From Clavelina lepadiformis (Eukaryota), in assembly GCF_947623445.1 (NCBI RefSeq), contig NC_135246.1, forward strand, positions 18,964,288-19,028,287: a DNA stretch of 64,000 bases, given 5' to 3'. A program made the position numbers and the translations under genes. The notes beneath the pieces were generated by a model. The model worked only from the letters and a program-made list of their open reading frames with translations. It was not told the origin of the DNA and ran no database searches. This document shows, in pieces, positions 4,020 to 54,107 of this stretch. Within the stretch, counting starts at the first letter, position 1. Each line of letters begins with the position of its first letter.

Positions 4020-4160
4020 AGCTATTTTAGGTCTTACTGAAGTTATACTTAGGTTGTTATGTTATAACTTATAACATTTATGTTATAGGTTAACAACAAA
4101 CTATGAAATTAGCCCCGAACACACCATTTTTTCCGGTGAATTGTAGTGCCAGCCGTCACT
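4020..4160. repeat. dispersed repeat copy (ttaggttaacaa...ttttccggtgaa...tagtgccagcc)
   Basis: shares blocks with 5400-5530. Confidence 0.35.
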
Positions 4161-5399
4161 TTTAACTTAAGTTACATAGAGTAGACTCTGTCTTGTCTTG
4201 CATTGGTTACTTTCGTCGTTATGCCATTCTCACACTGGTGGAAAGATATAGCAAAAGTCTCATCATTTAGGTACATTTAAGCGTCCAGTATTCACCATAT
4301 GTCGCTGATTAAAATCGATGCCGGTTCTTCTAATCTCAAATAACCCGCTGTTAATTACTTGCTTTTCTCGTGGGAATGCATTTGCGTATACTGTACTATT
4401 GATTGTTTTGCTCTACTATACCCTCCGGTCTTATATCGCATTTTCTTTGGGTCAGCGCATGTGATTTCTATCAGCACGTCTTAATAATCGCTATAATCAC
4501 CGCACAATAGTATACAGCGCTACAGCGCAGTAGGTTGTTAGAAATGCATGGAGTTCGCAGCTAACAATAGGAAAGGTTTAGCCACATTTTTGTAACTAGT
4601 TCGCTCAAAACGTTTTCAAAGATCTCTGTTTTAGTCAGCTAGCTCAAATAAATAATAGACAATTCACAAAACTTCTCGTGTACGTGGTGTTGTACTGTAC
4701 ATGCGTAAATGACTTTTTCTACCGATTTGTAGTTTTACAATAAATACTTACAGCTCTGTGAGTTCCACAAACGGCTCAGGTTTGTGATTAGTTTAATAAA
4801 CGATAATGCCCGGGTAATTAAGATATCCGAACCGGTGACCTATAAATGCTATTTCACATCGTAATATTCTTTTTGATCAAATAACCTCTTTATGTTTGTC
4901 ATAAGGCATTTTCCCTGGTGACGTAATAATCGGTGCAACAATAATGTGACGTATTAATGCGATCACTATTCCGGATTTTCATTGATCAAACCGACGAAAT
5001 GACTCCGGGATGCAAAAGCAGCGAAGCTTATTACACAGAGCAACATGTTGTTAAAAAAATTTGCTTAGCTTTCAATGTTCTTTGTTTTGGTATTTTCGGG
5101 ACTGTTTAGAAAGCCTTCCTACTAAAATAACTTTCATAATAATTAATCAATCGAATCCTTACAAGTAACAAATCTTGGGAAGCTTTCGAAGTAATTTCTT
5201 ACAGAGTGACCTTATGTGTAGTGAATAGTTAAAGAATAGGATTAGTATTATTATTATTATTGTGGTTCTATCCGTCCTATACCTTATTTTATTGTGTATG
5301 GGAACATAGTCAAAGATAGGCTGTTAGATTAGGAAAATGGGAAGGAAAAAATCGATTTAAGCTTTTGGCGTTTAATTAAATTTATTTGTACCGTATATC

Positions 5400-5530
5400 A
5401 GATGGTAGATTTAGGTTAGGTTTAGGTTACTTTGTTATGACATTTAACTTAGGTTAACAATAAACCACGAAAAATAGCTTTGGATTTACGCTTTTTCTGG
5501 TGAAATAGTGGCAGCCATTTCTTATTCGCC
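5400..5530. repeat. dispersed repeat copy, ~230 bp upstream of gene A start
   Basis: similar to 4020-4160. Confidence 0.35.
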
Positions 5531-5773
5531 ACCGCCACAATGCAAGTTGGATAACGCAATGCTTTAGTGCCGTGTTAGGTTGTTAACATCTCAACGAGTA
5601 ACAAATATATTTGTCCAACTTCGATTTTATATTACTGAACGGTTTGTAAAAGTTATTTTTAAGCAATTTTGGATTAAAGGTTTTCAGTTCAGGTTTATGC
5701 CGTTTGTTAGTGTTTTGTTTATTGCTCACTGCGTTGCGTTGAAGACATCAATAGCTGAATGCAGCAACAAAAC

Positions 5774-5813
5774 ATGGCGGAACTGGAAGATTTGACTTCG
5801 CTGCAAAACGAGT
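5774..5813 (+). CDS. coiled-coil gene A exon 1 (MAELEDLTSLQNE), paralog of gene B
   Basis: ATG followed by GTGAGT donor; same exon length class and phase as gene B exon 1. Confidence 0.45.
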
Positions 5814-5969
5814 GTGAGTGTTATAAAAATGTTTATGAAATAATATCAATATGTATACAAAAGTCATTAGGTATGTTGTTGTTTCCTTTAAATAAACAGG
5901 GAAACTTTTTGTTTTCTTAAAACAGTTTGCTCACATACTTGTTTACTGAAGCTGTTAAATCTTGTTCAG

Positions 5970-6171
5970 TTGAAAGCTTGAAGTCCGAGGTTCAAGATTC
6001 GGAAAGAATTTCAGCTGAACTTCGCACATCACTTGAAACTGAGAAGCAAAGATCACAAGAGACGCTCTCTGCTCTAAAGCAAGAACAGAAACGTAACCTT
6101 GAATTGACAGCCATGGTTGAGCTGAGTTGTAATGAAGCCGAGAAACTAAAGCGACAAATTGATACGCTGAG
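5970..6171 (+). CDS. gene A exon 2 (ESLKSEVQDSERISAELRTSLETEKQRSQETLSALKQEQKRNLELTAMVELSCNEAEKLKRQIDTLR)
   Basis: acceptor cttgttcag; donor CTGAG|gtagtt; heptad-rich; ends ..IDTLR like gene B exon 2. Confidence 0.5.
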
Positions 6172-6250
6172 GTAGTTGCTGAAGAGTTGATGTAGGTTTT
6201 CATCAATTTGATGACGTATGCTTTGTGTATAAACACTTTCATTCTTATAG

Positions 6251-6371
6251 AATGAGTTTGCGTGCGGTTAATAAGATGTTGACAATTACGGAAGACGAAC
6301 GTAAAGAACTTGAAGAGCAGAAAATGAAAGAAATGAGAAGAAAAGCGCAGAGAGAAGAGTTGGAAAAACTG
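6251..6371 (+). CDS. gene A exon 3 (RMSLRAVNKMLTITEDERKELEEQKMKEMRRKAQREELEKL)
   Basis: acceptor ttcttatag; donor CTG|gtgaac; phase-compatible; parallels gene B exon 3. Confidence 0.45.
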
Positions 6372-6523
6372 GTGAACCCATATTATCCGAATGATAACAC
6401 GGCTAGTGTGATAACAACATGTCAAACTTCTACAAAGAAAAAAATACGTTGTTTTAGACAACATTTGCCGTTTATTTTTGCACAAACGCAACAGCTAACC
6501 AATACTTATTTAAACGTCAGTAG

Positions 6524-6675
6524 GTCTATGAAACGATAAATGTTGAAGAGAAACCTCCAAACCATCGAACCTTGAACGCAATTGAGAGAGATTGTGGCGA
6601 CATTTCCCAAACTAATAAGGAGCTGACTTCTAAGCAATTATCCCCAGAATGTGACGATATTCTATCGACATCAAA
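6524..6675 (+). CDS. gene A exon 4 (VYETINVEEKPPNHRTLNAIERDCGDISQTNKELTSKQLSPECDDILSTS); 3' exons of gene A not resolved
   Basis: acceptor cagtag; donor AA|gtacgt; same phase pattern (0 to 2) as gene B exon 4. Confidence 0.4.
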
Positions 6676-7355
6676 GTACGTATGACGCATTACTTTTACA
6701 AGATCGCACTTTTATTTTACATCGCGCTGACCAAATAATATATATCTTTATATGTATATTTTTATATTTTTAGATATAAATTATTCGAAACAAAAACAGC
6801 ATTTTGTGGGTATTATGATGCTTCTGTTTCTTGTTTGTGAACGTACCCCTTGTGCTTCTGTTACTTTCCAGAGGTTTCCTCTACTCTAGGAGTATAGACC
6901 CCTACGCTTATGAAAAACAAAGTTTGAATAATTAAGTAACAGTAAATTAATTGTTCAACTAAACCTTGTACATAGTTGGCGCTTATGTTGAGTTATCTGA
7001 AAGTATAAGCTAAATGGGAAGTGACGTTTGGTGTAGTTTTATTTGTGGTTTAGAATTTTACCAATAACTTTAAACGACCTCTCGCGGTAGTACAAATATG
7101 GCCTACGCTGCTTAGCCGTATAATAACATAGAAACTTTTCGCTTTATAAATGTATTTGCTCTGCAGATAAACTATTACCGCTGAGTGTTGCGATAGACTA
7201 GGGAAATACACGCAGCTACAGTAGGTTGTACTGTACTGTATGTGGAACTCCTTTTGATTTATCGTGTTAAGTCAAAATCTATTGATTAAAAGATTTGCTC
7301 TTGATGATAAATTGCAAACGAAACAGAAAATGTAAAAAAATATAAAAAGAAACTG

Positions 7356-7453
7356 GTGGCAAGTGGCAAGTGGCAAGTGGCAAGTGGCAAGTGGCAAGTG
7401 GCAAGTGGCAAGTGGCAAGTGGCAAGTGGCAAGTGGCAAGTGGCAAGTGGCAA
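7356..7453. repeat. microsatellite (GGCAAGT)n, about 13 copies
   Basis: perfect heptamer tandem repeat; ORFs 7356-7559 and 7370-7669 are its translation. Confidence 0.95.
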
Positions 7454-9622
7454 GCTCTTGCAGATTTGCAGAAGTATTTATTTGAAAGCTGTCAAAACGT
7501 TGTTCAAGTCAAAACATTTGTCGTTGCTAACAAAGTTAAATCTATTGCACCGGCTATAAGTACTAACGTGAATCCCCTAGTTCAGAACCTTAATGACGGA
7601 TATCGGGAGCATATCCTATACCCTATATACTTTCTTTGCGATTACCTAACAAAACAACAGTCGTACTGACGTTTTGAATATATTTTACAAGTTTTTCAAG
7701 CATGTTGTTGTTCATATTGAGTCGTATGTATTCGAAATAAACGGGTACGTGAGTGCTAAGCATAAGCCTACGAATTAAGGCAACATGGCCCTTATGATAT
7801 ATTGTAACAAGACTGTCGCTACAGATATTGGGCAGTTTGACATATACCTGATATATAAGCTACACTTAAATACCATTCACAAAAAATAAATTTGACCAGT
7901 AAAATTACCTGTATAATTTTTTTAATATGAATGATAGATCACACAAAAGCTATTTCAAATTGTTCTTATATTTTTTCAGTTCTTCTGAGGTAAATGCGAT
8001 AGAAGCAATCAAAACTGTGAGTGTTTTTCCTTGTCGGAAAAAGATTTAGCTTTCACGTTTTGCCATTTTATATTGCTCAGCATTTTCTTACTTTTATTTA
8101 TGTTTTCTATTAATTTTTTGCGTATTAAAATGATGAATTGTTGAGAAGGTTACAAAAAAACATAATCGAACTGATTGAAGAATTAAATCGAAGAAAATGA
8201 AGAAATCGCAAAAAAAATTGAAGAGAAGAATTCATGCTAAAATCTCTAAGATACAAGCAAACTTAAAATACCCTTCATGTGATCGTGACATCTCTTCGCT
8301 GTATTGCGAATTAAACAAATCGGAATATAAAGAATAAAAGATGTGTTTTTTTGCTGATATCTTTAATTTATGCAGTTTTCGCCATCGTTTGTAAAATCTG
8401 TTACCAAATTGCTTGAAATAAAAATACTTGAAGAGAATCCAGCAGTACTTGGTATCCAAAATGGATTGTGGCTTCCCCTCGAGGGGCGATAGATAGAAAA
8501 GGCAGGCATGACCACTGACCATTGTCTGCGGTTTGCTTCTGAGCGTAACACTCGTAGACCGCGTAGTGCGGAGTGTTCCACCTTCTAATTAAGAAGATTT
8601 GGGCGGAAAGGAGCAAAAACGGGTGCAAAGGTACTCAAGGCACACTAAAGCTACCTTGTAACTAGAAAGGAAGGTCGTTGGCGGCCATCGACGTTGAGGT
8701 TGAAATTACAAAAGACAGGGTTGTGCTGCCACTTCGCAGTTTATTTCGCCAGCTCAATGGACCACATTGATGCTTCAATCGCCAACTCATTGAAAATTTA
8801 GCAATGTGGACGGACATCTCAATTTCTGTGATCGGGTATGCATTTTTCGTAGGAACATAAAACGTTTTGAGTTAAAGTGGCTCTTATTGCTTAATAAGCC
8901 AATAAATTAAGAGTCATGTTAGGTCATGTCAGTCAATTAAGAGTCATAAAGTATGCCATGTTAGGCACCTACACCTGCGTTCCTGTAATGGTTACACTAC
9001 ACATATTCCTTGTAAATATGTTCTAAATTTCTGTAGCGTTTTATTTTCTACTACTAAACTACTCTCCCTGTGATACCTGCACTTCGGTTACAAGGAACAC
9101 AAAATCTGGGTATCGCTAACGTCATCTGATCAACATACATAACAATAAACCACAATAGACCACAAAAATGTCCCAGAAATAGGTCCAGTATTAAGCTATT
9201 TTCTATGCATCGACAAAGTATAAACAACGGAAAGCAAAAAATATAATACAAAACGGGATAGAGTAAATCTAACCGACTCTGAAGGCAAGTGTAAAGAGTT
9301 TTTATACCATTCTGGATCGAACAGGCATAGACAAATTTAATTTTGTGAAAAGTTAGTTGTACAGCTTCAATCGAAAATTGAATGTTCTCAGGTTTGAATC
9401 TTTTATCGCTTATTGAATGCACTGTTAGTTGAATTAACTAAAGAATCTGGAATGCACTAGAATCTAGTTTAGAGACAAAACTTTTCGTTAATTCGTTGAT
9501 GTTTTGCTAAACAATGATTTTAAATGATTGGAAAGCAGCGCACCAAGTCTTCACCACTGCCCATACCATCGCAATTGATTGAGGAAGACGCGCTACATTT
9601 TTTCTGCAAAAACGTTTTTAAG

Positions 9623-9838
9623 TTAGCTGGACACATTAGTGTAATTTATGAATACTGGTAAACAATTACAGTTACCCAAAATAAGTTCCAAATCCGCAAA
9701 TTTAGTCTTTAGAATGTTTAGTACTTCTTCCATCAGACGAGCTCGAGTCTGCCTTAGTTCTGATGAAGCACGATATTTGGAGTTTGCCTTTTGCTCTGCG
9801 ATCGCAACAGCTTTCAAGTCCTTAATTCTAGTAAACAC
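9623..9838 (-). CDS. gene D: candidate coiled-coil exon (…SSELRQTRARLMEEVLNILKTKFADLELILGNC); paralogous to 14772-14940 and 18425-18600
   Basis: stop-free heptad-rich frame; similar peptides in two other places, always just downstream of a C/E-type gene. Confidence 0.3.
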   Translation of the reverse strand: MFTRIKDLKAVAIAEQKANSKYRASSELRQTRARLMEEVLNILKTKFADLELILGNCNCLPVFINYTNVSS

Positions 9839-10030
9839 GGTTTAAAAGGAATTTAACGTAGCAGTCAACGAACGGAAATCCCTGAAAACTTCAAGCAAAA
9901 TTTAAAATTATTTTGCAAGATCGATTTTGCATTTAGTTTTAAGTTACAATTATTTATATAAACTTTGGATGCAAAAACTCGACATTTTCAGAAATTGGTG
10001 CTAAATTTTATCCAATATGTTGCATAAGCA

Positions 10031-10211
10031 GGGCTGTGATTCAGCCAGTTCGCACCTGTTCGTACGAACCGGTTCTTGGAATTTTAATGGACTCCGTGAA
10101 CCGGTTGTTAACAAGCGTATGTAGAGGCCCAGATATATATCGGCCCCGGGTCAATATGGTATGCTGCTAGTGACAGAACCGGTTGTTAAAATATTTCGAT
10201 CCCATTACTGT
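10031..10211. mobile_element. candidate short insertion flanked by a 10-bp direct repeat TGCATAAGCA
   Basis: identical 10-mers at 10021-10030 and 10212-10221; interior rich in gaaccggtt palindromes. Confidence 0.3.
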
Positions 10212-10667
10212 GCATAAGCACTATTTCTCCCAAAATATATAGTGCTTGCTTTGAATATTCAAATATCTTGGACACTGAGCATAAAGAATAAGCCTGAAAA
10301 AGCATTACGTTATGTTTTGCCGACGCAGTTCTCCATTAAGCCGATTTATCTCCGTCTGTCGGATTCTCAATTCTTCTTCTTCAGTGTGGTATGTTTCTTG
10401 AATCTACTAAAATTTATGTTTTAGGCTTACAAGTTTTTCCCCACAAATGTATGGCAGCATGGAAACATCTAAAATCAATGTTTTCCGATCTTCTCCCAAT
10501 GCAGTCGTTGGTCGCCTAACTGAAATAATCCCTTTTTCTCGGACCCCGACTTAAAAAGGGTTAACTTAATAAGCTATGTATGACGAATTAAAAAATTATT
10601 TGCCGAGCACGGGTTAGAAACCACTGGTGTAAACGCATCTTATTGTTTCCCCTTGTTCAGATTAATA

Positions 10668-10821
10668 TCATGGCTTTGTCGTAATTACTTCCTCGAAATC
10701 TAGCTTGAGTTTCTTGAACTTGTCCAAATGATCGCTTACGAATGTCTGTGTAAACAACTTCTCTCGTTCAAGCGTCATGGAATCCTGCATCAACGTTCCT
10801 TGGGTTTCCTCTAACTCGAGC
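10668..10821 (-). CDS. gene C terminal exon (LELEETQGTLMQDSMTLEREKLFTQTFVSDHLDKFKKLKLDFEEVITTKP*)
   Basis: acceptor cttacag; phase-1 join with upstream exon; stop TGA at 10668-10670. Confidence 0.5.
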
Positions 10822-10907
10822 CTGTAAGGAAAAAAACATTTCCGCCCAAAGCAGGATTCAATAGAACATTCAACGTCAATGTTTCCTTATGGTCCAAACT
10901 CCTTTAC

Positions 10908-11109
10908 CTCAGTTTATTGATTTCTTCATTCATATTCCTCTTCTCCTTTTCTAACGCCTCAATATTAGCTACAAGTTTCCGGCTGTTTTCTCCTTCCTCT
11001 TGAAGAGTTGTAAGTAGGCTGTTTGCTCTCGCCGTTTGAGTTCTCAACGATATACGAAGCACAGATGAGACGTCGTATTCCTGATGAAGCTTGGCCCCCA
11101 AGTTCTGAA
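10908..11109 (-). CDS. gene C penultimate exon (…QNLGAKLHQEYDVSSVLRISLRTQTARANSLLTTLQEEGENSRKLVANIEALEKEKRNMNEEINKL); 5' exons not resolved
   Basis: acceptor tttcccgcag; donor AG|gtaaag; 202 nt, same length and phase as gene E exons. Confidence 0.5.
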
Positions 11110-12041
11110 CTGCGGGAAATGTCAGAAGCTTTGCAATGATCAAAAACAAATCATTGCAAATACGAACTTTTCTTTCTAATCTTAAAGTATAAGATAAAAA
11201 CAACGCGTGTACTAGTTTACATTATATGCATTGTCAATATTTTATAAATCTTTTTTGTCTTTCGTGCATATTTAAAACCACAATACTACTGCACGGTACT
11301 CACGGTCATTTTGCAGTGCAGTTACATAATCAGGTCCTTCAGAATTGGGTACTTCTGCCATTTTACGCTGCTGAACTCAACCAGATATACGTCTTCAAAG
11401 CAATGCGCGATTACCAAGAAATGAACCGCACAGTTTCGAGCTAAAAGGAGACAAAGTACGTCATAATTACTACAAATATTTGAGCGAGCAATGTCTTTTA
11501 AAGGTTATATGTCCACAAATTAAAAAAGATCAATATTTTTCCTACGACTGCAGTTTGTTAGAAGAGCGGTTAAGAACGAACAAATGAGGGCAATGTTGGT
11601 TATCTAAGGCCTTTTTAGAACAACAAAAAGCCTCGTTAAAATGTTCCTGTTGTATATTTAGTGCGACATATGTTGTTAGTCAAAACGCCTTGAGTTACTT
11701 TATTGAGATAAAGTGCTGAGAAATGTCAAATATAAAATACAAGTTGTACAAAAACTCACTTATTTAGGCGCTGTTCACATATTCGTTCTTATTTTATTAT
11801 ATGATGTGTCAATGCAAATGATTTGATTTGTTTTAGCTTGTGCACAATCGCCTTTAAAGAAAGACTGTGTGTGCTGGCGCATTCCTTCTAGTAATTATGA
11901 CGCACTTTAACGCAGTTACTTTTAGCATAAAAATTTTCCGTTCAATTCTTGGTATTCGACGAGTAACGTTTGTTTGTGAATATAGCTTTGTGCTCATTTC
12001 ATTGCATTGAAGACATCGTTGACTGAAATCCGGAACATAAA

Positions 12042-12084
12042 ATGGCTGAGAAACTTGAAGCTACATCTTTATTACGAAGTCCTA
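12042..12084 (+). CDS. coiled-coil gene B exon 1 (MAEKLEATSLLRSP)
   Basis: ATG; GTGAGT donor. Confidence 0.55.
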
Positions 12085-12291
12085 GTGAGTACTTAAAAAC
12101 GTTTGTAACATATTTGTTATGTTTATACGGAAATAACCGTGTGTATGTAACCTTTATCCATTCATTATGCCCTGTATATTGTATATATATATTTCATGTC
12201 AGTAAAAAACAAAAAAAGATTAGCTTTTTACTAACTGTTCATTTGTGCTATGTAATTAGTAAAACATTCAAATTTACGGTTAAATACCTAG

Positions 12292-12490
12292 AGTTAGAGA
12301 TTCAATTGAAGAAGATAATCACCGCTGATCTTAGCACCTCGATTAAAACTGAAAAGCAGACATCACAAAGTCTTAGTTCAGTTCTTGAGAGAGAGCGAGA
12401 GCAAGAGCAAGTACCATCCAAGCCTGCGGCATTAAACCATCAGACGAACAAGACACTCGATAATGCTCACGAACGGATCGATACGTTGAG
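12292..12490 (+). CDS. gene B exon 2 (…LELEIQLKKIITADLSTSIKTEKQTSQSLSSVLEREREQEQVPSKPAALNHQTNKTLDNAHERIDTLR)
   Basis: acceptor tacctag; donor TTGAG|gtgtct; phase-consistent. Confidence 0.55.
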
Positions 12491-12576
12491 GTGTCTATAC
12501 ATAGCGTTTAAGTGATGGTGTTCATGCTGATCGATTCGATGAGGCATATACTTTAAGTGCTAAAATTTTTTCTCAG

Positions 12577-12682
12577 GTCAATGTTGAAACTGACTAATGC
12601 AAAGACGGCTCTTGCCGAAAAGAAGCTGCCAGAGGAGAAAACAAATACAGATGTGGAAGAAAAGAAGAATACGGAAAAGGTG
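12577..12682 (+). CDS. gene B exon 3 (SMLKLTNAKTALAEKKLPEEKTNTDVEEKKNTEKV)
   Basis: acceptor tttctcag; donor gtaagt. Confidence 0.55.
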
Positions 12683-12795
12683 GTAAGTACCAAGGCTAGT
12701 GTGATAGTAATATCAGTATTAAATACATCTCCGTCTGTTACCGGATAAACACTTTTGTACTTTACAATCAGAGGTAACCAATTTATAACAAAAAG

Positions 12796-12938
12796 GTGCA
12801 AGAAGCATTCAGTGCTAAGCAGCAATCTTGCCAACAGATCGTGAACCCAGTTAGAGATAGTCGTAATGTTTTCCAACTTTATCAAGAGCTGGCTTGTGAG
12901 AACCTACACTCGAATGCAGACCTTCCGTTTGAATTAAA
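12796..12938 (+). CDS. gene B exon 4 (VQEAFSAKQQSCQQIVNPVRDSRNVFQLYQELACENLHSNADLPFELK)
   Basis: acceptor acaaaaag; donor AA|gttcgt. Confidence 0.5.
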
Positions 12939-13147
12939 GTTCGTACATTACGTTTATACTAAAACACTCTTACTATGCTGAGTGACTGGGGAACTTAAAA
13001 TTATGCAGGCTGTGTATGGTCAAACTTTTTACACTTAAGAACTATTGTTGGCTTGTTGCCGTTTTGAAGAAAACATCAGCCAAACAATTAGCCAATGATT
13101 TGCTCCTTTTGCACGGTAGATAATACTTTATTTCTCATATGTTTCAG

Positions 13148-13193
13148 TTTTCTTCAGTCTGGTAAGCTGGAAAGAAAATCATCATCATCTGCG
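13148..13193 (+). CDS. gene B exon 5 (NFLQSGKLERKSSSSA)
   Basis: acceptor gtttcag; donor gtaagt; restores phase 0. Confidence 0.5.
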
Positions 13194-13296
13194 GTAAGTG
13201 TTTTATTGTCGAAAGTTGATTAATCTTTTACTGTAGGCTTCTTAATTCGGTATTTGCAAGCTTGTGCTTGTAATTTTTGTCGTTTTTGTGCTTTAG

Positions 13297-13437
13297 TTAC
13301 AAGATTTAGAGAAGGAGTTGGATAAAGCATTGAATGTTGTCGATGAACGCGTGGATCGGCTGGATAAAGGTATAAAAGACACAAAGAAAATTGAAGATCT
13401 GCTGGATTCATGCTTGAAAGAAATGGAGCAAACATAA
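13297..13437 (+). CDS. gene B terminal exon (LQDLEKELDKALNVVDERVDRLDKGIKDTKKIEDLLDSCLKEMEQT*)
   Basis: acceptor gctttag; TAA stop at 13435-13437; a partial copy of this exon recurs at 17262-17360 at the start of the second duplication unit. Confidence 0.55.
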   Translation, partial: LQDLEKELDKALNVVDERVDRLDKGIKDTKKIEDLLDSCLKEMEQT

Positions 13438-14771
13438 AACGTCCTTTATGTACTTAGTGTGATGTCATAATGTTGCTGTTTGGTGTTTTGCTTAAAAAGT
13501 TTTTTTATTTTAGTCACAGCTTGTGGTTTGTTACCTTTGAAAACTTGCGTGCAGTAGAAACACTTGACAAAATGTTGTTTGTTTTCACGTTGTGTAATTT
13601 GCATCAGAAAAATTTTAGTGCTTTCTTAAAATCCATGTTCTTAAGTAATAACCGTTGTCCATATTCGGTGTCATGCTATACTATGTACCCTAGACCAAGG
13701 CAGTTAAAAAACTAGAAGATGCGGTAAAGTATTTTATGTACTGCAAAGTCGATGTAATAGATATGTCCACAATAAATCTGTTTTATGTTGTCATTTTTGC
13801 TGTAGATGTGTATTTGACTAAAGCAACCATAAAACAGTAGAAAGACACTTATTATAGCAAATAACTTACAGTTAATTAACATAGAAAACATTTATTTATT
13901 ATTTCATTTTGCTTCTGAATCCCAGACACACACAATAACATTACTTGGCTTTGTAGTTAGTTGATTTTATTTCAGGGTTGTACTACTCCGTTGTAAGACA
14001 TATTTTTACTTTGGTTTGTAAGGAAAAGTTTTAATTAACAAGGTGCTCTTCGGAACGTCCAAATAAGCTGAACCATAAACAGCTTACCGACAGTAAGTAA
14101 TAAATATCAAGTACCATTTAATTCTGGTTGGAAGAAGATTAAACCAATTCTAAATTACCAGCAGTGATAAACAACACACGATCAAAAGAGATGGCATAAC
14201 ACAGAAGAAAGACATTTGAAGTGTATAGTGTATGAGTAATTGACATTAAAAATATTTTAATTCTTTATATTGCTTATGACACCCAGAATATGATTAAGTC
14301 ATGAGATACTTCCTTTCAGGATTGCATACTTCGTGCACTAGTGCGTTGTAAAGCGTATTTTTACTTTGGTTTGAAAAACACATTCACAAGGTCAACGGAA
14401 CGCCCAAATGAAGAAGCTGAACTACAAACGGACAACGATGATCCGTGTTTGCTATGAAATAGTTTTTCCAACAGCAAGTATATCAAGTACCATTTAATTC
14501 TGGATGGAAGATTAAACCAATTCTAAATTACCAGCAATGATAAACAACATAATTTCTACAAAGCAAGCGATATCAATATAATAACAAGTAACGAGTCAAT
14601 CATATCAGTATACATCAATCTGCCAGGGAGTTGTACCACACCGCAGTGTTGGAAGATTTCAACGTGCAGACAGATACGTAGTTTCTCTTTTCCATATGTT
14701 CCAGGCGAGCTATATTGTCTCTGCAAAAATATGTTCGTTTGACAAGTGTCAATTACTGATACAAAGGGCCA

Positions 14772-14940
14772 TTGCCTTGCAACCGTTACCCAAGAGAAGT
14801 TTTAGATTGTTAAAAGACTGTTGTAAATCGTGAAACACTTGTCTTGCCCTACGAGCCTCAGTCTGATTTTGCTGCAACGCAGCACAAAGTGCGAAGTTCA
14901 TTTTCTGCTCCATCTCCTGAGAAGCTTGTTGACTAAGAAT
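14772..14940 (-). CDS. gene F copy 1: candidate coiled-coil exon (…QASQEMEQKMNFALCAALQQNQTEARRARQVFHDLQQSFNNLKLLLGNG…), gene D paralog
   Basis: stop-free heptad-rich minus-strand frame, similar to 9623-9838. Confidence 0.3.
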
Positions 14941-15469
14941 TTAAATCGATGTCATTGCATACGAATATAGTCAAGCAATCTATTTAAAGCAATAAGTATT
15001 TTCAATATTTAAATTTAGAGGTATAACCAATGTAATGCATAAACGATGCAAATATTTTTCTTTCCAAAAGTAATTACTTAAAAACATATAGACGTGCATT
15101 GAGGGTTAGTCCCTCCATAAACTTAATGATTAGTACATATGATGCACAATTTTGCACCACCTCTCCCACCGACGCCTTGTCAAATTTTCCTGCTTTAGTT
15201 GTGATTTGTTAATTTTGTCATTGTTGCTAATACATTCGCTACTTTCATGGTCAGGACAAATTTATCGTTCCACACAATTATGACAAAAAATGAAATAAAT
15301 GGTCATTTATGCAAGGCAAAGTATATATGCATAGCTTTCAAAAGAAACTTGCCCGCTTCCCGGCATAAGAGATTTGGTGTTGGTTAGATTTTTTGGGCAA
15401 TATTTCTCTTCATTACGGACAGCTTTGCAGACCTAAAACAGTTAAATTCGTTCCATCATTTGACACTCT

Positions 15470-15646
15470 TTAAATTATCATCATCAAACAAACCGTGTTA
15501 GTGCCATGATGTTGTCCACCCATGTCTGGATTGTGTTGCCACATCTCCATTTTGTTTGATGCCTGCTCTCTTTGCAATTCTTCGTATCTCGCCTTCTGCT
15601 CTTCCAGCTCCTTGATTTTAAGAACCAACTCTGAGTTGGTCAATTC
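15470..15646 (-). CDS. gene E copy 1 terminal exon (EIVELTNSELVLKIKELEEQKARYEELQREQASNKMEMWQHNPDMGGQHHGTNTVCLMMII*)
   Basis: acceptor ttttcttag; stop TAA at 15470-15472; phase-1 join. Confidence 0.45.
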   Translation of the reverse strand, partial: ELTNSELVLKIKELEEQKARYEELQREQASNKMEMWQHNPDMGGQHHGTNTVCLMMII

Positions 15647-15729
15647 CACGATTTCCCTAAGAAAAATTTCCAAAGGGATAAAACCTCAGCAAAATGATCA
15701 GCATCAAAAGTAACTTGTGAAACTCATAC

Positions 15730-15931
15730 CTGCATTCATCGTTTTCTAAAATTGCATGACTTATCTTCTGCTTTAATATTGAAGTTGCATTTATCAGCTC
15801 CTCGTTACGTTTCTCTTCCATCTCGAGGTCAGTAAGAAGATCACTTGATCTTTTTCTTTCAATTTCAAGTGTTGTTTGAAGACTATCCAAAGTTGACTCA
15901 AATTCAAGAATCTTGGACCTTAAGTACTTAA
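15730..15931 (-). CDS. gene E copy 1 penultimate exon (…KYLRSKILEFESTLDSLQTTLEIERKRSSDLLTDLEMEEKRNEELINATSILKQKISHAILENDEC)
   Basis: acceptor gttgcag; donor AG|gtatga; 202 nt like gene C exon 10908-11109. Confidence 0.45.
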
Positions 15932-16039
15932 CTGCAACGTTTAACAGCTTCAGTGAGCAATTATAACCTATACTTGAGCAAAATCGAAGTTATTGGAAAA
16001 TCTACCTTCTCCCAATGTTTATGTAATGTTATAAGTGGG

Positions 16040-16530
16040 CTGTACCGCGGTACTTCATTTGTATCGATACCGGTACTGTCGGTATTTTTGAAAAAAGTAC
16101 CGAAACTCGGTACCGAATTACTTTTTTCAAGAAATTTTGGTCGGTCCCAGTCCCGGTACTCGGTACTTTTCAGGTGATAATTCATTTCAAAATTTTGACA
16201 AATACGTTTTCAAAAATACATGTTAATTAATCCTTAATATTAATTTTAGCATTTGTTGATAATTTTTTAATCTAAAAATGTCAAGTATAATTGCAAGCGA
16301 TTAACATCACATATGTTTTGACCTAGATTAACCTTTACTAGGGGCATAATTGCGGCAAACATTGCATTTGCTGCAGCATCTTTTACACAAAAAGTATCGG
16401 TACCGAGTAGGCTTATCGACAAACTATCAAACTACTTTTTTAAAATAGTACCAAATACTGGAACTGTCGGTACACTTTTTGCAAAGTACCGGTACCGTTA
16501 CCGACAGTACTTTAAAAGTACCGACGGCAA
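16040..16530. repeat. palindrome-rich MITE-like element (GGTACCG / CGGTAC / TACCGACAGT motifs), copy in unit 1
   Basis: dense inverted repeats ggtaccgagt / actcggtacc; terminal tgtcggta ... taccgacagt. Confidence 0.4.
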
Positions 16531-18424
16531 ACCTCGGTTTAATTGTACACATTTGTACACCTATAATCATTTTTGTATAAGTTTTAACTGTAAATTACCG
16601 AATTTCATACTAATGTTATAGTTATAAGTATAGTTGTAAGTTATAATTCGCCATTATACTCACTTTCGCTTTTCGCAGAGGGGAAAGTTCCTTGCTCTTC
16701 TGTCATTTTCTGTTCAGCTTAAATACTTACGTCTTCAAAGCAATGCAACGAGTTGATGGCAGACTATGGCTGCTTGTCGATTACCACGAACAGAAGTGAA
16801 AAGTTTGAAGACGAATAAAGCGTGATCAGTAACGTCATAATTACGCGAAATCGTAGCGTATTTTTTAAAGACGATTTGTCCACAATTTAAAAAAGTTGAA
16901 TAATTTTCTTATTAGTTTGTCAGCGGTGTAGGAGAGAATGATTCAAAACGTCAACAGAGTACGTTTTATTAAGCTTGGTAGATTCAACAAGATGATTAGA
17001 ATTTAATACACTTCCTTGCCGAAATGATTAACTATTGGCAAATCTAGGATTGTAACCAAGTTATATTTTTCTGACTCGAGTCAAGTCGTGTAATTTTGAG
17101 TTGTGATTCGAGTAGAATCGAGTCAATTTAAGTTGTGACTACACTCAAGCCAATTTAAACTATGACTCGAATAAAGTCAATGTTTTTAACGTAAAAACTA
17201 TTCTGAGGTCACACTATGGGTTGCAATAAACTGATCAGTAGGTCTATATATAAGTAGTAGGTTATCGATGAACGCGTGGATTGGCTGGATAAAGGTATAA
17301 AAGACACCAAGAAAATTGAAGACCTGTTGGATTCATGTTTGAAAGAAATGGAGCAAACATAAAACGTCCTTTATGTACTTAATGTGATGTCATAATGCTG
17401 GTGTTTGGTGTTTACAAAGTTTTTGTAAAATTATTCACAGCTTGTGGTTTGTTACCTTTGAAAACTGGCGTGTAGTAGAAATACTTGACAAGATGTTGTT
17501 TCTGTTTTCACGTTGTGTAATTTTCATTAGAAAAATTGTGGTTTCCTAAAATCCATGTTTGAAGTAATAACCTTTGTCCGGTGCTATGCTACTGTGTACG
17601 TTAGGCTCACGTACGCAGTTAAAAAACAGAAAATGCTGTATAAAGTATTTTATGTACTGCAAAGTTGATTTAATAGATATGTTCACATTAAATCGGGTTT
17701 TATGCTGTCATTTTTGCCTGAATGTTTATTTGACTTTCTTAACCATTGTCAACTCTGAATGTTGGGAAAAAATATTTAACTGTGGTCTAATAGGCTACAT
17801 TTCTTAAAAACGATCGAAGGAGATTGCTTAAGACAGTAGAAAGACACTTTAAGTGTAAGTTAGTAATTAACTTTGAAAACATTTTAATTCTTTATTTTGC
17901 TTATGAATAATCCCAGACCACACTTATCATTTCATTAACTTCTATGAGACACTTCCTTTCAAGGATGCATACTTCGTTCACTAACTTAGTCAAAAACACA
18001 TTTACAAGGTGAAACCCTGCGGAAACGTTCACATAAATAAGCTGGACTACAAACGGACAACCATGATCCGTGATTTCTCCGAATAAGTTTTACTGACAGT
18101 AAGAAATAGGCCTTTCAAGTACCATTTGATTCTGGATGGAAGAAGATTAAACCAATTCTAAATTATCAGCAGTGATGGACAACACAATTTCTACAAAGCA
18201 AGCGATACCAATATAGTAATAATAATAAGCAAAAAGTCAGTCATATCAATGTACATCCATCTGCCAGGGAGTTGCACCATACTGTAGTATTGACCGAAAG
18301 AATTCAACGTGCAGATAGATGCCTACTTCCCTTTTCAATCTGTTCCAGACACGTTATATTGTCTCTGCAAAAATATGTTCCTTTGACAAGTGTCAATTAC
18401 TGAAACAAGGGACCATTGCTTTGC

Positions 18425-18600
18425 AACCGTTACCCAAAAGAAGTTTCAGATTGTTAAAAGACTGTTGTAAATCGTGAAAAACTTGTCTTGCCCTACGAGC
18501 CTCAGTCTGCTTTTGATGCAGCGCAGCACTAAGTTCAGAGTTGTTTTTCTGCTCCATCTTTTGAGAAGCTTCATCTTTTTCACGTCTGTTGATAAAAGCT
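18425..18600 (-). CDS. gene F copy 2 (duplicate of 14772-14940)
   Basis: duplicated unit. Confidence 0.3.
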
Positions 18601-19300
18601 TGACGTGATAAAACTGAGTTTTTGACTAAGAATTTAAATTGATGTCATTGCATACGAATATAGTCAAGCAATCTATTTAAAGCAACAAATATGTTCAATA
18701 TTTAGCTTTAGAGGCATAACTAATCCAGTGCACGTACAATGCAAATATTTTTCTTTCCAAAGGTAATTACTTACAAGCATATAGACGTGCATTAAGGGTT
18801 AGTCCCTTCATAAACTTAATGATTAGCATATTTATGTTCACAGAAGATGCGGAGTAGGCCTAATTATTTGTAGCAGATAGAGTTTTTACTTGTATCTAAA
18901 CAGGTTTGGTGCTTTAACGGTCGCTATAAATTTGCCTTTCCTAAAATTTATCTTTATGATGCACAATTTGTCACCCCCTCCCCCACCGACGACTTGTCAA
19001 ATTTTCCTGCTTTACTTGTGATTTGTTAATTTTGTCATTGTTGCTAATACATTCGCTACTTTCATGGTCAGGACAAATTTATCGTTCCACACAATTATGA
19101 CAAAAAATGAAATAAATGGTCATTTCTGCAAGGCAAAATATATATGCATAGCTTTCAAAAGAAACTTGCCCGCTTCCCGGCATAAGAGATTTGGTTTCGG
19201 TTAGATTTCCTGGGCAATATTTCTCTTCATTACGGACAGTTTTGCAGACCTATTAAATTACAGTTATTACCTATTAAACAGTTACCTATTAAATTACCTA

Positions 19301-19523
19301 TTAAACAGTTAAATTCGTTCCATCATTTGACACACTTAGGATTATCATCATCAAACAAACCGTGTTAGTGCCATATTGCTGTCCACCCATGGCTGGATGG
19401 TGTTGCCACATCTCCATCTCGTCTGATGCCTGCTCTCCTTGCAATTCTTCGTATCTCGCCTTCTGCTCTTCCAGCTCCTTGACTTTAAGAATCAACTCTG
19501 AGTTGGTCACTTCCAAGATTGAC
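19301..19523 (-). CDS. gene E copy 2 terminal exon (SILEVTNSELILKVKELEEQKARYEELQGEQASDEMEMWQHHPAMGGQQYGTNTVCLMMIILSVSNDGTNLTV*)
   Basis: duplicate of 15470-15646 with diverged C-terminus (stop shifted). Confidence 0.4.
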
Positions 19524-19596
19524 CTAAGAAATATTTCCAAAGGGATAAAACCTCGGCAAAATGATCAGCATCATAAGTAACTTGTGAAACTCATAC

Positions 19597-19798
19597 CAGT
19601 ATTTATCGTTTTCTAAATTTGCATGACTTATCTTCTGCTTTAATATTGAAGTCGTATTTATCAGCTCCTCGTTACGTTTCTCTACCATCTCAAGGTCAGT
19701 AAAAAGATCGTCTGATCTTTTTCTTTCAATTTCAAGTGTTGTTTGAAGACTATCCAAGGTTGTTTCAAATTCAAGAATCTTCGACCTTAAGTACTCAA
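19597..19798 (-). CDS. gene E copy 2 penultimate exon (…TTLEIERKRSDDLFTDLEMVEKRNEELINTTSILKQKISHANLENDKYW)
   Basis: acceptor cattgcag; donor TG|gtatga; 202 nt. Confidence 0.4.
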
Positions 19799-19899
19799 CT
19801 GCAATGTTTAACAGCTTCAGTGAGCAATTATAACCTATACTTGAGCAGAATCGAAGTTATTGGAATATCTACCTTTTCCCAATGTCTATGGAATGTTAT

Positions 19900-20395
19900 A
19901 AATGGGCTGTACCGCGGTACTTTGTTTGTATCGATACCGGTATTGTCGGTATTTAAAAAAAAAGTACCGAAACTCGGTACCGAAGTACTTTTTTGAAGAA
20001 ATTTTGGTCAGTCCCGGTACTCGGTACTTTTCAGGTGATAGTTTATTTCAAAATTTTGACAAATATGTTTTCATAATTACATGGTAATTAATCTTTAATA
20101 ATAATTTTAGCATTTGTTGATCTTTTTTAATCTAAAAATGTCAAGTAAAATTGCAAGCGATTAACATCACATATGTTTTAACCTAGATTAACCTTTACTA
20201 GGGGCATAGTTGCGGCAAACATTGCATTTGCAGCAGCATTTTTTACACAAAAAGTATCGGTACCGAGTACCGACAAACTATCGAAATACTTTTTTAAAAT
20301 AGTACCAAATACCGGGGCCCTCGATACATTTTTTGCCAAGTACTGGTACTGTTACCGACGGTACTTATGAAGTGCCGACGGCCAATCTCTGTGTA
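19900..20395. repeat. palindrome-rich MITE-like element, copy in unit 2
   Basis: duplicate of 16040-16530. Confidence 0.4.
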
Positions 20396-22090
20396 GTTGT
20401 ACAGATTAGTACACCTATGATCATTTTTGTATAAGCTTTTACTGTACATTACCAGAATTTCATACTAAGGTTATAGTTATAAGTATAGTTGTAAGTTATA
20501 ATTCGCCATTATACTCACTTTCGCTTTTCGCAGAGGGGAAAGTTCCTTGCTCTTCTGTCATTTTCTGTTCAGTTTAAATACTTACGTCTCCAAAGCAATG
20601 CAACGAGTTGATGGCAGACTATGGCTGCTTGTCGATTACCACGAACAGAAGTGAAAAGTTTGAAGACGAATAAAGCGTGATCAGTAACGTCATAATTACG
20701 CGAAATCGTAGCGTTTTTTTAAAGACGAGTTGTCCACAATTTAAAAAAGTTGAATAATTTTCTTATTAGTTTGTCAGTGGTGTAGGAGCGAATGAATCAA
20801 AACGTCAACAGAGTACGTTTTATTAAGCTTGGTAGATACAACAAGATGATTAGAATTTAATACACTTCCTTGCCGAAATGATTAACTATTGGCAAATCTA
20901 GGATTGTAACCAAGTCATATTTTTCTGACTCGAGTCAAGTCGTGTCATTTTGAGTTGTGATTCGAGTAGAGTCGAGTCAATTTAAGTTGTGATTCCACTC
21001 AAGCCGGTTTAAACTATGACTCGAATAAAGTCAATGTTTTTAACCTAAAAACTATTCTGAGATCACACTATGGGTTGCAATAAACTGATCAGTAGGTCTA
21101 CACTCTACACCGTTATGGCTGTCTACAAATTAGTCTGGTTGTTACTTAACCTACTACAGAGTGTTGTAATTGTTTAGAAAAATATCCGATTTTGTGACCT
21201 AAAGTTGTCTTTCTTGCTGTGTCGATTGTCATAACGTGACTCAAATCGTTTGGAGGCTGACTTGAGTCAAGTCGAGTCATCGAAAAGCTTGACTCGAGTC
21301 AAGTCAATGACTCGATTCATTGCAAAACTGGTAATAAAATTAAAAACACAAAACGTTTTAACCGCTTTGCTTGGTACAACAAATGATAACAAAGTCGAAC
21401 TAAATGTGTTTTCGCACCATAAACCGAATCGCAGAAACTTGACTGGGGACAAAATTGCAAGTAAAGCAACAGGAAGAGAACACGATTGATATTTGGATAT
21501 TGTTGGTATTCTGAATGGTTTCTTATTCACACCTTTATATATACTTTATTTGTTTGATGGAGATACGACACTTTAAAGAAACTTTGATTATTAGTTTGTT
21601 CTTTATAAATGGCGTCTGGTTGATGCCACATTCTTGGGATTCCCCCTTTTCCTGATGATGTTATTTTGGGAAACCAGGCTTACCAGGCCTACTAGCCTAC
21701 TGCCTATATGGCATTTCGGATTTTCGGTTACAATTTGAGAGGGATAGGTTACAGACTACAGCATATTGGTTACAGACAGGATCTAGGCTACTGGATGTTG
21801 ATTGTTAGACAGGGCATAGTTATTGGTTGTGATGTTCATTCTACATTGAAAACATTTGGGTTTGCTCTTCAAAAACGGGTTGTTTTCGACTTTGGGGCGG
21901 GGATTTCCCCGAAGTATAATAATTTTTTTTATGTTATTTGTTTTGACTGCTAACTTATTTACCCCGTTACCACGAAATAAAGAGCTTTGATAACGTCACA
22001 CTTTGCTGGCTTTGAGGTGGTTGTGTATTTTCGTAGTCTAACCCTGAAATCCAGTTTAAAGTAAAGAAACTTTTGTGCGTCATGCCACAG

Positions 22091-22440
22091 ACCAGCGGTT
22101 CCTAAACTTTTTTGAGGGCGACACAAATCCGAGTTTGGTGAACATCTCGCAGCCCAAGCTTCAAACATCGTATTTTAACACGAAAAAATAACGATTGTAT
22201 AGATGATTTTTTTGCAGTAGCTAAGTTGCAATGTCAGCAATTTACTCTTTTCTCAAGTACCTTGGGGCCTACGCTACAGACAGACACAGCAGACAAGCAG
22301 TGATAATAATCTGATCCACTCACTATGGAACAATGTATTTTATTAGAAACATCGGTTTGCATCGCCTTGGTGCGACCCATCTTTTGACTCTTCGCGACCC
22401 TTGTTTGGGTCGTGACCCATACTTCGGGAACCACCGCCAT
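22091..22440. mobile_element. diverged MITE of the same family as the hAT-like elements at 55147-55484 and 60305-60642
   Basis: 5' end ggttcctaaacttttttgagggcgaca and 3' end gggtcgtgacccatacttcgggaacc match the family termini (ttctcaaact…gggtcgcgacccc) in inverted orientation. Confidence 0.45.
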
Positions 22441-22718
22441 AGACTACCATCGAAACCTGACGTAATTTCCCGTTTGGTTTACGCCTAAATATGTAAGAAT
22501 ATCTTTGCTAGGCCTTGTGACATGTTAAATCACTGCAATGATCTAAATGCCAACTTTTGATTTTAATGAGTTAAATTGATATCGCCAAATATAAGTTTAA
22601 AGACTAACATCAATTATGCCTAATCACCACAAAGTTATTTTGTTAGCAGGTTATGCTAAGGAGTGCTGTAAAATCTTTTTTGAATAATTTTCGCAGTTAT
22701 CAGTTAGGATTACAAGCA

Positions 22719-23717
22719 ATGGCACCAGGCAGAAAAAGGAACCGTGGAAAGGGAAATAGTGAACCTACCACTAAAAAAGCAAAATCAAATGCAAAGAAAA
22801 CAACTGATAATGAGATTACAACAAAAGACGACCCTATTGTTGCCCCTGTGAGTGGGGTTATAGAAAATGGTCAGGGTGACAATGGATCAAGTGATGTTAC
22901 TGCTGTGCCACGGGAAACAACAGCTGATGGTCGAAGATACAATCTTAAAATTGCATCGTGGAATGTAGCCGGTGTTCGAGCCTGGGTTAAAAAAGACGGG
23001 CACAAGTGGCTCTGTGAAGAAAGTCCTGACATAATTTGCTTGCAAGAAACTAAATGTGCTAAGAAAGATATTCCGAAGCAACTGAAAGACATGAGTGATT
23101 ACAAAATTTACTGGAACGAAGCCAAATCGGTCAAAGGATTCAGTGGGGTGGCTTTGTTATCTAAAGCTAAACCCATGCAAATTGACTATGGTATCGGTGT
23201 CGAAGAACATGATCAAGAGGGGCGGACAATTACAGCTGAGTATGAAAAGTTTTATCTTGTGACCACATATGTTCCAAATTCTCAAAGAGGTTTGAAGAGA
23301 CTCAGTTATCGCATGAAGTGGAATGAAGATTTCCTGACTTACTTAAAGAGTCTTGATGCCAAAAAACCTGTCGTTCTCTGTGGAGACATGAACGTTTCAC
23401 ATCTTGAGATAGATCTTGCCAATCCAAAATCAAACAGAAAAAATGCGGGATTTACTCAGGAAGAAAGGGATGGAATGAGCACGCTTCTTGAAAGTGGGTT
23501 CGTGGATACTTACCGCAAATTCTACCCCGACTTGATAAAAAAGTACACGTTCTGGACGTACATGAGCAATGCTCGAGCCAAGAATGTCGGTTGGAGACTC
23601 GATTATTACATTGTGTCAGAGAAATGGATGGACAATGTGTGTGATAATGTCATAGAGCCGTCAGTTATGGGAAGTGACCATTGCCCTGTTGTTCTCTTGA
23701 TGGCAATACCAGAGTGA
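22719..23717 (+). CDS. APEX1: DNA-(apurinic/apyrimidinic site) endonuclease, ExoIII/APE1 family, single exon. An in-frame upstream ATG exists at 22653; the APE1-like N-terminus MAPGRKRNRGKG starts at 22719
   Basis: colinear with human APE1 along the whole protein: SWNVAGVRAWVKK, ICLQETKC (catalytic Glu), TTYVPN, VLCGDMNVSH, NAGFTQEERDG, WTYMSNARAKNVGWRLDYYIVS, GSDHCPV (catalytic His); Lys-rich NLS-like N-terminus. Confidence 0.85.
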   Translation: MAPGRKRNRGKGNSEPTTKKAKSNAKKTTDNEITTKDDPIVAPVSGVIENGQGDNGSSDVTAVPRETTADGRRYNLKIASWNVAGVRAWVKKDGHKWLCEESPDIICLQETKCAKKDIPKQLKDMSDYKIYWNEAKSVKGFSGVALLSKAKPMQIDYGIGVEEHDQEGRTITAEYEKFYLVTTYVPNSQRGLKRLSYRMKWNEDFLTYLKSLDAKKPVVLCGDMNVSHLEIDLANPKSNRKNAGFTQEERDGMSTLLESGFVDTYRKFYPDLIKKYTFWTYMSNARAKNVGWRLDYYIVSEKWMDNVCDNVIEPSVMGSDHCPVVLLMAIPE

Positions 23718-54025: not shown

Positions 54026-54107
54026 CGTTGTCGGCAGGATTCGAACCTAAGCGGGCAGAGCCCAGCAGATTTCTAGTCTGTCGCCTTAACCACTCGGCCA
54101 CGACAAC
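54026..54107 (-). tRNA. tRNA-Ser (anticodon AGA)
   Basis: 82 nt; 7-bp acceptor stem GTTGTCG/CGACAAC; A box TGGCCGAGTGG; long variable arm; B box GGTTCGAATCC; anticodon loop CTAGAAA; anticodon-stem last pair mismatched. Confidence 0.85.

Follow-up and report, generated by a model that had tools for sequence, protein, structure and literature searches.

The analysis concerned a 64-kb window (64,000 nucleotides of contig NC_135246.1) of the genome of the colonial ascidian Clavelina lepadiformis. All coordinates below are positions in this window. It carries a tandem array of short coiled-coil genes, designated A, B, C, E1, and E2. A preliminary description, made from the sequence alone, had proposed a locally duplicating array of paralogous short alpha-helical genes, and this was borne out by gene models, BLASTP comparisons, and a recent tandem duplication. 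The array probably descends from a partial duplicate of a large gene for a PACT-domain centrosomal scaffold protein.

Gene models and family structure

Gene models were built by hand from splice sites and phases and were then compared with public proteins. The G+C content was 31-44% across the window (2-kb bins) and about 35-37% across the array, and introns were of the GT-AG type. The spliced translations of the array genes were 100% identical to C. lepadiformis proteins, and all five models were matched exactly or nearly by RefSeq or ENA entries named "uncharacterized protein". A second public assembly (GCA_961645235.1; locus L001) was 98-99.8% identical at the locus. Its Cvlepa_BANY2021 annotation consists of RNA-seq-guided funannotate models with CAK accessions (PMC10950049), and these coincided with the RefSeq XP models, which come from a separate pipeline, for B, E1, and the upstream gene G described below.

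Gene A (LOC143465407, plus strand, 5759-8049) matched P0010 (199 residues), with an upstream ATG at 5759, and P0011. The coding exons of isoform X3 lie at 5759-5813, 5970-6171 (202 nt), 6251-6371, 6524-6675, and 7980-8049. Depending on whether translation starts at 5759 or 5774, exon 1 is 55 or 40 nt, followed by exons of 202, 121, and 152 nt; isoform X2 makes different 3' splice choices from X3. Intron 4 of A contains a perfect (GTGGCAA)n microsatellite of about 14 units (7342-7474), the length of which differs between the two public assemblies. Gene B (LOC143466236, plus strand, 12042-13437) corresponded to isoform X1 (P0031, 225 residues), with coding exons at 12042-12084, 12292-12490, 12577-12682, 12796-12938, 13148-13193, and 13297-13437 (43, 199, 106, 143, 46, and 141 nt). 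At its exon 3/4 junction (12680-12800), RefSeq isoforms X1-X4 vary by one codon (VV or V), and an alternative acceptor drops 14 residues in some isoforms, which suggests NAGNAG-type and alternative 3' splice-site use. Gene C (LOC143465481, minus strand, 11361-9593) lies head-to-head with B, with 680 bp between them. Its model was 100% identical to P0005 (199 residues) and comprises exons at 11304-11361, 10908-11109 (202 nt), 10740-10821, 10309-10403, 9676-9827, and 9593-9603; in RefSeq entry P0006 the exon 3 donor lies 51 nt beyond that of P0005.

The two remaining genes are on the minus strand. Gene E1 (LOC143466237, 16706-14710; P0008, 213 residues) has coding exons at 16664-16706, 15730-15931 (202 nt), 15494-15656, 15353-15432, 14790-14932, and 14710-14720, and gene E2 (LOC143465463, 20561-18354; P0007, 216 residues) has coding exons at 20519-20561, 19597-19798 (202 nt), 19361-19523, 19170-19249, 18434-18585, and 18354-18364. 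In C, E1, and E2, exon 5 is followed by an 11-nt terminal exon with a conserved tttttgcag acceptor, which encodes EKM and a stop codon in C and ETI and a stop codon in E1 and E2. The donor of exon 4 in E1 and E2 is GC (GG|GCAAGT, at 15347-15353 and 19164-19170), and it is the same in the RefSeq and CAK models and in both copies. Intron 1 of E1 (16040-16530) and of E2 (19900-20370) contains about 500 nt dense in GTACCG/CGGTAC motifs. These segments could be an inserted repeat element, for which the repeat search reported no long inverted repeat.

A common plan underlies all five genes. Each has a short coding exon 1 ending in phase 1 and an exon 2 of 202 nt (199 nt in B) that ends in phase 2 at an arginine codon (tryptophan in E2); exon 3 runs from phase 2 to 0 and exon 4 from phase 0 to 2 throughout the family. 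The encoded proteins are 194-233 residues long and are specified by 5-6 coding exons in genes of 1.4-2.3 kb. The exon-by-exon likeness of A and B that had been proposed was confirmed: the phases after exons 1-5 are 1, 2, 0, 2, 0 in both, the introns are GT-AG (one GC-AG), both proteins start MAE...TSL, and both second exons end IDTLR. The preliminary description had also recognised the 202-nt exon common to C, E1, and E2 (10908-11109, 15730-15931, 19597-19798). It is, however, exon 2 of 6 and not a penultimate exon, and the supposed terminal exon (10668-10821 and its equivalents) is really exon 3, which the annotated transcripts splice to three further exons. The coiled-coil segments that had been set apart as a separate D/F class do prove to be open, spliceable exons (9676-9827, 14790-14932, and 18434-18585), each of them exon 5 of C, E1, or E2. 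The division into three classes thus fails, since D/F represents 3' exons of the C/E genes, and the A/B and C/E types are homologous to each other.

This homology was evident from BLASTP comparisons. A and B were 30% identical over 171 residues (expect value, E, 2e-6, composition-corrected), and matches across types ran in register with the exons (A-E2, 8e-6; A-C, 4e-4; C-E2, 6e-5 to 8e-5). Inclusion of G and of a second upstream gene, H, gave further matches (A-G, 1e-9; B-H, 4e-11; G-H, 5e-12; E1-G, 5e-7). The A/B and C/E types were assigned to one family because of their common exon phases, these cross-type matches, and common promoter blocks.

The promoter blocks belong to a region of about 230 bp upstream of each ATG that can be aligned among all five genes. 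Two blocks are prominent, GTAATTATGACG and, about 35 nt 5' of the ATG, GCATTG(n)TTTGAAGAC. They were located at 11391-11406 (GCATTGCTTTGAAGAC) and 11459-11470 (GTAATTATGACG) on the minus strand for C, at 11891-11902 (GTAATTATGACG) and 11999-12014 (TCATTGCATTGAAGAC) on the plus strand for B, at 16731-16746 (GCATTGCTTTGAAGAC) and 16833-16844 (GTAATTATGACG) on the minus strand for E1, and at 20586-20601 (GCATTGCTTTGGAGAC) and 20688-20699 (GTAATTATGACG) on the minus strand for E2. In A, the block GCGTTGCGTTGAAGAC at 5731-5746 on the plus strand, in the promoter/5' region, belongs to direct-repeat family D18. Across the window, GTAATTATGACG had four exact matches (B, C, E1, and E2) and one with a single mismatch, five in all against 0.33 expected; the only near-match outside the family genes, with one mismatch, is at 24989-25000 on the minus strand. 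The form GCATTGnTTTGAAGAC had five matches, one per gene, against 0.26 expected, and for each of the two motifs none of 100 shuffles reached five matches. Gene G is preceded by a related promoter block, and the head-to-head genes C and B each own a promoter copy. The presence of the blocks at each gene indicates that the whole transcription unit, promoter included, was copied in both orientations, and this conserved module suggests that the family genes may be co-regulated.

The cluster extends beyond both the span originally given for the array (5700-21100) and the window. Besides the five genes in the window it includes two just upstream, which makes at least seven, and an eighth copy was found on another contig. 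The CAK accessions run in contig order, with CAK8671222 corresponding to E2, CAK8671223/224 to E1, CAK8671225 to B, CAK8671226 to C, and CAK8671227/228 to A, followed by CAK8671229, judged by its position to be presumably an unrelated leucine-rich-repeat-like gene, then by CAK8671230/231 (gene G; P0014/P0022, LOC143466168) and CAK8671232 (gene H; P0017/P0023, LOC143465468). At locus L006, H and G lie about 9.2 kb and 5.0 kb, respectively, upstream of the window start, and beyond them are a methyltransferase gene and thymidylate synthase. A 227-residue gene at 1-424 on the plus strand, which continues upstream in L001 and L006 and lies between G and A, was rejected as a paralog; its translation is leucine-rich-repeat-like. 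The eighth copy (P0009, CAK8690240) is of E type, is designated E3, and is 75-80% identical to E1 and E2. It lies on a separate 1.4-Mb contig of GCA_961645235.1. It could be a genuine additional gene or an uncollapsed haplotig, or the two individuals that were sequenced could differ in copy number.

The most recent event at the locus, which had been suspected of rapid duplication, was a tandem duplication of a 3.86-kb unit, identified from direct-repeat families D1-D17 spaced 3.6-3.9 kb apart and from self-matches of the window. The first unit (13336-17246) comprises the 3' half of the last exon of B, the B 3' region, and all of E1 with its promoter, and the second (17261-21100) comprises a truncated copy of the last exon of B and all of E2 with its promoter. 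The truncated copy (17261-17362, plus strand) retains the last 33 codons and the stop codon, B residues 193-225 aligning with 17261-17359 at 94% in tblastn; no gene is called over it in the public annotation, and it is a relic of the E1/E2 duplication. Between E1 and E2 the introns have diverged by 7.6%, the 540 bp upstream by 3.0%, and exon 1 by 0%, with synonymous divergence (dS) of 0.134 and nonsynonymous divergence (dN) of 0.081, about the intron rate. The upstream 540 bp are thus better conserved than the introns (p 9e-5), and the nonsynonymous sites are not (p 0.92). This near-neutral coding rate suggests weak constraint on everything save helix-forming character and reading frame. Over the family as a whole, exon 2 is only 18-43% identical among most paralogs, and all eight copies keep their open reading frames (ORFs), splice sites, and exon phases, which argues against simple pseudogenes.

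Known-family searches and homology to a PACT-domain gene

A Pfam scan was carried out with A, B, C, and a 143-residue model of E1 (exons 1-3), and none of them gave a match at the gathering score. Sub-threshold matches (Lzipper-MIP1, Rootletin, TPR_MLP1_2, CREPT, and others) were regarded as coiled-coil noise. Lzipper-MIP1 (PF14389) is the sole family attached to gene C in precomputed annotation. Residues 12-91 of C align to its model, and both are leucine-zipper-like heptad sequences; the score of 26.9 bits fell short of the gathering cutoff (32.2), and members of the Clavelina family other than C have no match, so the assignment was rejected as generic coiled-coil similarity. In the same scan, read to an E value of 1, no match was found to the amplified testis coiled-coil families of Cor1/SYCP3/XLR type or to PACT (PF10495), and no PACT domain is recorded for the full-length E1 and E2 proteins P0008 and P0007.

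Searches of PDB sequences with the family profile and with a segment of the large gene described below returned nothing meaningful, the matches to HA2, VraR, and Cep85 (E 0.0017) being generic coiled coil. Foldseek comparison of the E1 model with the PDB gave zero matches, as expected for a bare helix. A word-index search of 5.8 billion proteins returned Clavelina proteins only. Nothing was found in a scan of Joint Genome Institute (JGI) metagenomes with the exon-2 alignment, or in a literature full-text search on family peptides and on partial duplication of the pericentrin gene. The statement that no named family could be assigned therefore stands as far as Pfam gathering scores and RefSeq names ("uncharacterized protein LOC...") are concerned, and what it missed was the ancestry, that is, homology to a PACT-domain gene over five exons.

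The predicted structures agreed with the description of the proteins as alpha-helical. AlphaFold2 placed a helix at residues 11-123 of E1 (predicted local distance difference test, pLDDT, 90-98) and a second at 163-212, and helices at 14-53, 61-130, and 176-223 of B. The description as heptad-rich held for six of the eight members, in which heptad a/d occupancy exceeded that of shuffled sequences (at most 9 of 200 shuffles reached the observed value); it was not above shuffles in E1 (23 of 200) or in the off-window E3. The predicted long uninterrupted alpha-helices and the heptad a/d periodicity are features of dimeric coiled-coil proteins.

Homologues outside the cluster were obtained with hmmsearch, using a six-sequence family profile in an exhaustive search of 1.84 billion representative proteins, which gave 15 matches. 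These included G and H and short unnamed ORFs from ENA assemblies that represent family exon 2 (DLRTSLExEKQRS...EIDxLR), with whole-library E values of 9e-13 (P0013) to 8e-4. It was prokaryote-style ORF calling on contigs such as the metagenome contigs L005 and L007, described below, that exposed these exon-level homologues. One further match, P0016 (409 residues, four internal repeats), was judged to be an unrelated repetitive coiled coil. Three of the contigs that carry exon-2-like ORFs (L002, L003, and L004) are orthologous loci of three related eukaryotes. In each of them about 20 conserved, exon-like segments follow one another colinearly on the same strand, and the exon 2 homologue has about nine of them on each side. 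In L002 and L004 a PACT domain closes the series, 4.2-5.3 kb downstream of the exon 2 homologue, and in L002 this region scored 86 bits for PF10495 (cutoff 25). The large gene was classed as pericentrin/AKAP450-type.

The correspondence extends over five consecutive exons. Exon 2 has an acceptor in phase 1 and a donor in phase 2 (..L-R AG|GT) in the large gene and in the small genes alike, and the next two exons of the large gene run from phase 2 to 0 and from phase 0 to 2 (ending AA|GT), as in A and B. The fifth has a phase 2 start and a phase 1 end (..DLQAIL-G|GT), and it is matched by the D/F exons (..DLELIL-G|GT and ..NLKLLL-G|GT; general form ..DLxxIL-G|GT) and by the C-termini of G and H (G ESSRCEALRAALD, compared with L002 ERGRCEELHSALE). 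The large-gene exon that precedes exon 2 ends ..QLQNE-G|gt in phase 1, and exon 1 of A and C ends ..SLQNE and ..ALQND, respectively; small-gene exon 1 is equivalent to just the tail of this longer exon. Profile-profile alignment of the eight paralogs with four large-gene segments (hhalign) gave a probability of 99.0% and an E value of 5.9e-18 over 143 columns. Five colinear exons with identical phases, together with this alignment, indicate that the small genes are PACT-less partial duplicates of a pericentrin/AKAP450-type gene.

The closest relative of the small genes is a 1-kb contig, L005. Its exon 3 matched exon 3 of A (E 2e-9) and of E1 (E 1e-3), its exon 4 matched exon 4 of B (E 6e-5), and exon 2 of A was 49-51% identical to the parent-like exon of L005 (BLASTP maximum 51%). 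In exon 2, the identity of each paralog to L005 (34-49%) exceeds that to most of the other paralogs (18-43%). Such star-like divergence would be expected if a slowly evolving parent had given rise to copies that diverged independently. The seawater metagenome run from which L005 derives (ERR771006, PRJEB8682) also yielded another contig, L007, which is 99.7% identical to 11931-12875 of the window. This near-identity and the shared run make it plausible that L005 is Clavelina DNA, and this 1-kb contig may be part of the parent gene or of the least-diverged copy. The run is also of note in itself as a seawater metagenome that holds nuclear DNA of C. lepadiformis.

Other features of the window

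Immediately downstream of the cluster, at 22653-23717 on the plus strand, is an intronless ORF of 354 residues that resembles AP endonucleases of the APEX1/exonuclease III type. An ORF of 672 residues at 35416-37434 (plus strand) coincides with the G+C peak of the window (43.5%) and has an actin-like N-terminal motif ending GRPRH, followed by serine/proline-rich low-complexity sequence. A single-exon ORF of 542 residues at 41992-43620 (minus strand) is PrimPol-type primase-polymerase-like and has a C-terminal cysteine/histidine motif. Between 54025 and 62715 on the minus strand are 17 tRNA-Ser genes (anticodons AGA, CGA, and TGA) in four tandem clusters, with a spacing of about 159 nt within clusters and 2.3-3.3 kb between them; the long ORF at 53997-54737 is a mere translation of tRNA-Ser genes.

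Origin and possible role of the family

The explanation that we consider probable is that the genes form a lineage-specific cluster derived from a partial duplicate of a PACT-domain scaffold gene and encode helical coiled-coil proteins with a putative role as adaptors or modulators. All copies would descend from one partial duplicate of a large gene for a PACT-domain centrosomal scaffold of the pericentrin/AKAP450 family. The duplicated piece would have comprised five consecutive internal exons, that is, the tail of one exon and the next four, about nine exons upstream of PACT. It would then have acquired a promoter, together with a start codon within the truncated first exon and a new, short 3' end, which is the 11-nt stop exon in C and the E genes and consists of other 3' exons in A and B. 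The copies would have multiplied locally, by direct as well as inverted duplication, most recently in the 3.86-kb E1/E2 tandem. The proteins are predicted to form parallel coiled-coil homo- or heterodimers and, lacking the PACT targeting module, might serve as soluble adaptors or as competitors. At centrosomes or ciliary basal bodies they may bind the rod segment of the parent scaffold to which they are homologous, or the proteins with which that segment interacts, and their coding sequences would evolve almost neutrally fast.

Several points weigh against this explanation. No match to a Clavelina parent gene was found in the window by tblastn, and no annotated long PACT protein of Clavelina or of vertebrates was among the 15 profile matches. 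The large gene was found in ENA assemblies (L002-L004), and L005, at only 1 kb, could be a further small paralog. Coiled-coil sequences can inflate similarity scores. The dN/dS ratio of E1 and E2 (0.61) is not significantly below 1 (p 0.11), so that neutrality is not rejected for this young pair, and the functional part of the explanation, a dimeric coiled-coil adaptor or modulator, is an inference.

A de novo or orphan lineage-specific coiled-coil family, in which heptads and a composition rich in E, K, Q, and L had produced the likeness to the PACT-gene exons by convergence, would account for the lack of Pfam, PDB, and named-protein matches, for the 47-50% or so of residues that are E, K, Q, L, or R, and for the absence of annotated pericentrin/AKAP9 proteins among the profile matches. 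Convergence would nevertheless have to yield 44-51% identity over about 70 residues that include the non-heptad motifs DLRTSLExEKQRS and NAHExIDxLR, an E value of 9e-13 against the whole library for P0013, and an hhalign E value of 6e-18. It is largely refuted by the intron positions, which are identical, along with their phases and the matching residues at exon ends, over five colinear exons, and we regard it as highly improbable. The opposite direction of descent, in which the small gene is the older and its exons were taken up into the large PACT gene in some lineages, by shuffling or by fusion with a neighbour, appears equally hard to sustain. PACT proteins of well-studied animals are missing from the profile matches, and these exons may accordingly not be universal in pericentrin/AKAP450. 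In three species, though, the exons occupy the middle of the colinear run of about 20 conserved segments, flanked by about nine on each side, small-gene exon 1 is only the tail of a longer large-gene exon, the small genes were detectable only in Clavelina in the searches made, and the paralogs radiate star-like from a slowly evolving, large-gene-like sequence.

The fragments might alternatively be transcribed but functionless debris of segmental duplication, decaying and called as genes. Nonsynonymous divergence at the intron rate between E1 and E2, a dN/dS not significantly below 1, the truncated exon of B orphaned at 17261-17362, and the loss from gene A of a B-type last exon, with several alternative 3' ends, would all be in keeping with decay. 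Neutral decay would, on the other hand, break reading frames, and all eight copies keep theirs, with canonical splice sites and phases, at 18-43% identity. The promoter is more constrained than the introns (p 9e-5), its blocks are kept among deep paralogs, and two pipelines, one of them RNA-seq-guided, yield identical models. We therefore consider functionless debris an unlikely explanation. A transposable-element origin was rejected, as the copies are local, each has its own promoter, and no inverted repeats of at least 40 nt were reported by the repeat search in 4000-24000; long terminal repeats and transposase ORFs were not searched for specifically.

Within the partial-duplication explanation, a more specific and quite doubtful proposal is that the proteins act as "mini-pericentrins", co-regulated PACT-less rod fragments that would pair with the parent scaffold or titrate a partner and thereby tune the organisation of pericentriolar material or basal bodies in an ascidian-specific manner. 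The unequal cleavages of the embryo and the multiciliated pharyngeal stigmata would be candidate settings, and the fast protein evolution would then reflect conflict or subfunctionalisation. Ancestry and the conserved promoter are what speak for this proposal.

Compared with pericentrin, AKAP450 (AKAP9), and Drosophila PLP, the small proteins show homology to some 160-200 residues of coiled coil from the interior of a gene with a terminal PACT domain; both kinds of protein are long alpha-helical coiled-coil sequences, and both the rod homology and the shared intron positions and phases were found when tested. They differ in having 194-233 residues rather than thousands, in lacking PACT (PF10495) and the N-terminal scaffold regions, and in being encoded by at least seven clustered, fast-diverging copies, each with its own promoter and start codon. 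The primate NBPF/Olduvai family, derived from the centrosome/Golgi scaffold gene PDE4DIP (myomegalin), offers a parallel in that a piece of a scaffold gene was partially duplicated and became an independent, locally amplifying, fast-evolving lineage-specific family. It has another parent gene, no sequence relationship to the present genes, and arose in another animal lineage, and NBPF amplification involves both whole genes and a domain inside them, whereas in Clavelina whole 1.4-2.3-kb genes were copied with their promoters.

The importance of these results is moderate, since they have no bearing on a long-standing open question. They assign an ancestry to eight "uncharacterized" Clavelina proteins, yield the hypothesis that these proteins interact with the pericentrin/AKAP450 rod segment or its partners, and provide a conserved promoter module suited to reporter assays in ascidian embryos. 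If the proposed origin is correct, the cluster would be a clean and datable case in which an internal piece of an essential centrosomal scaffold gene gave rise to a new gene family, here in the sister group of the vertebrates.

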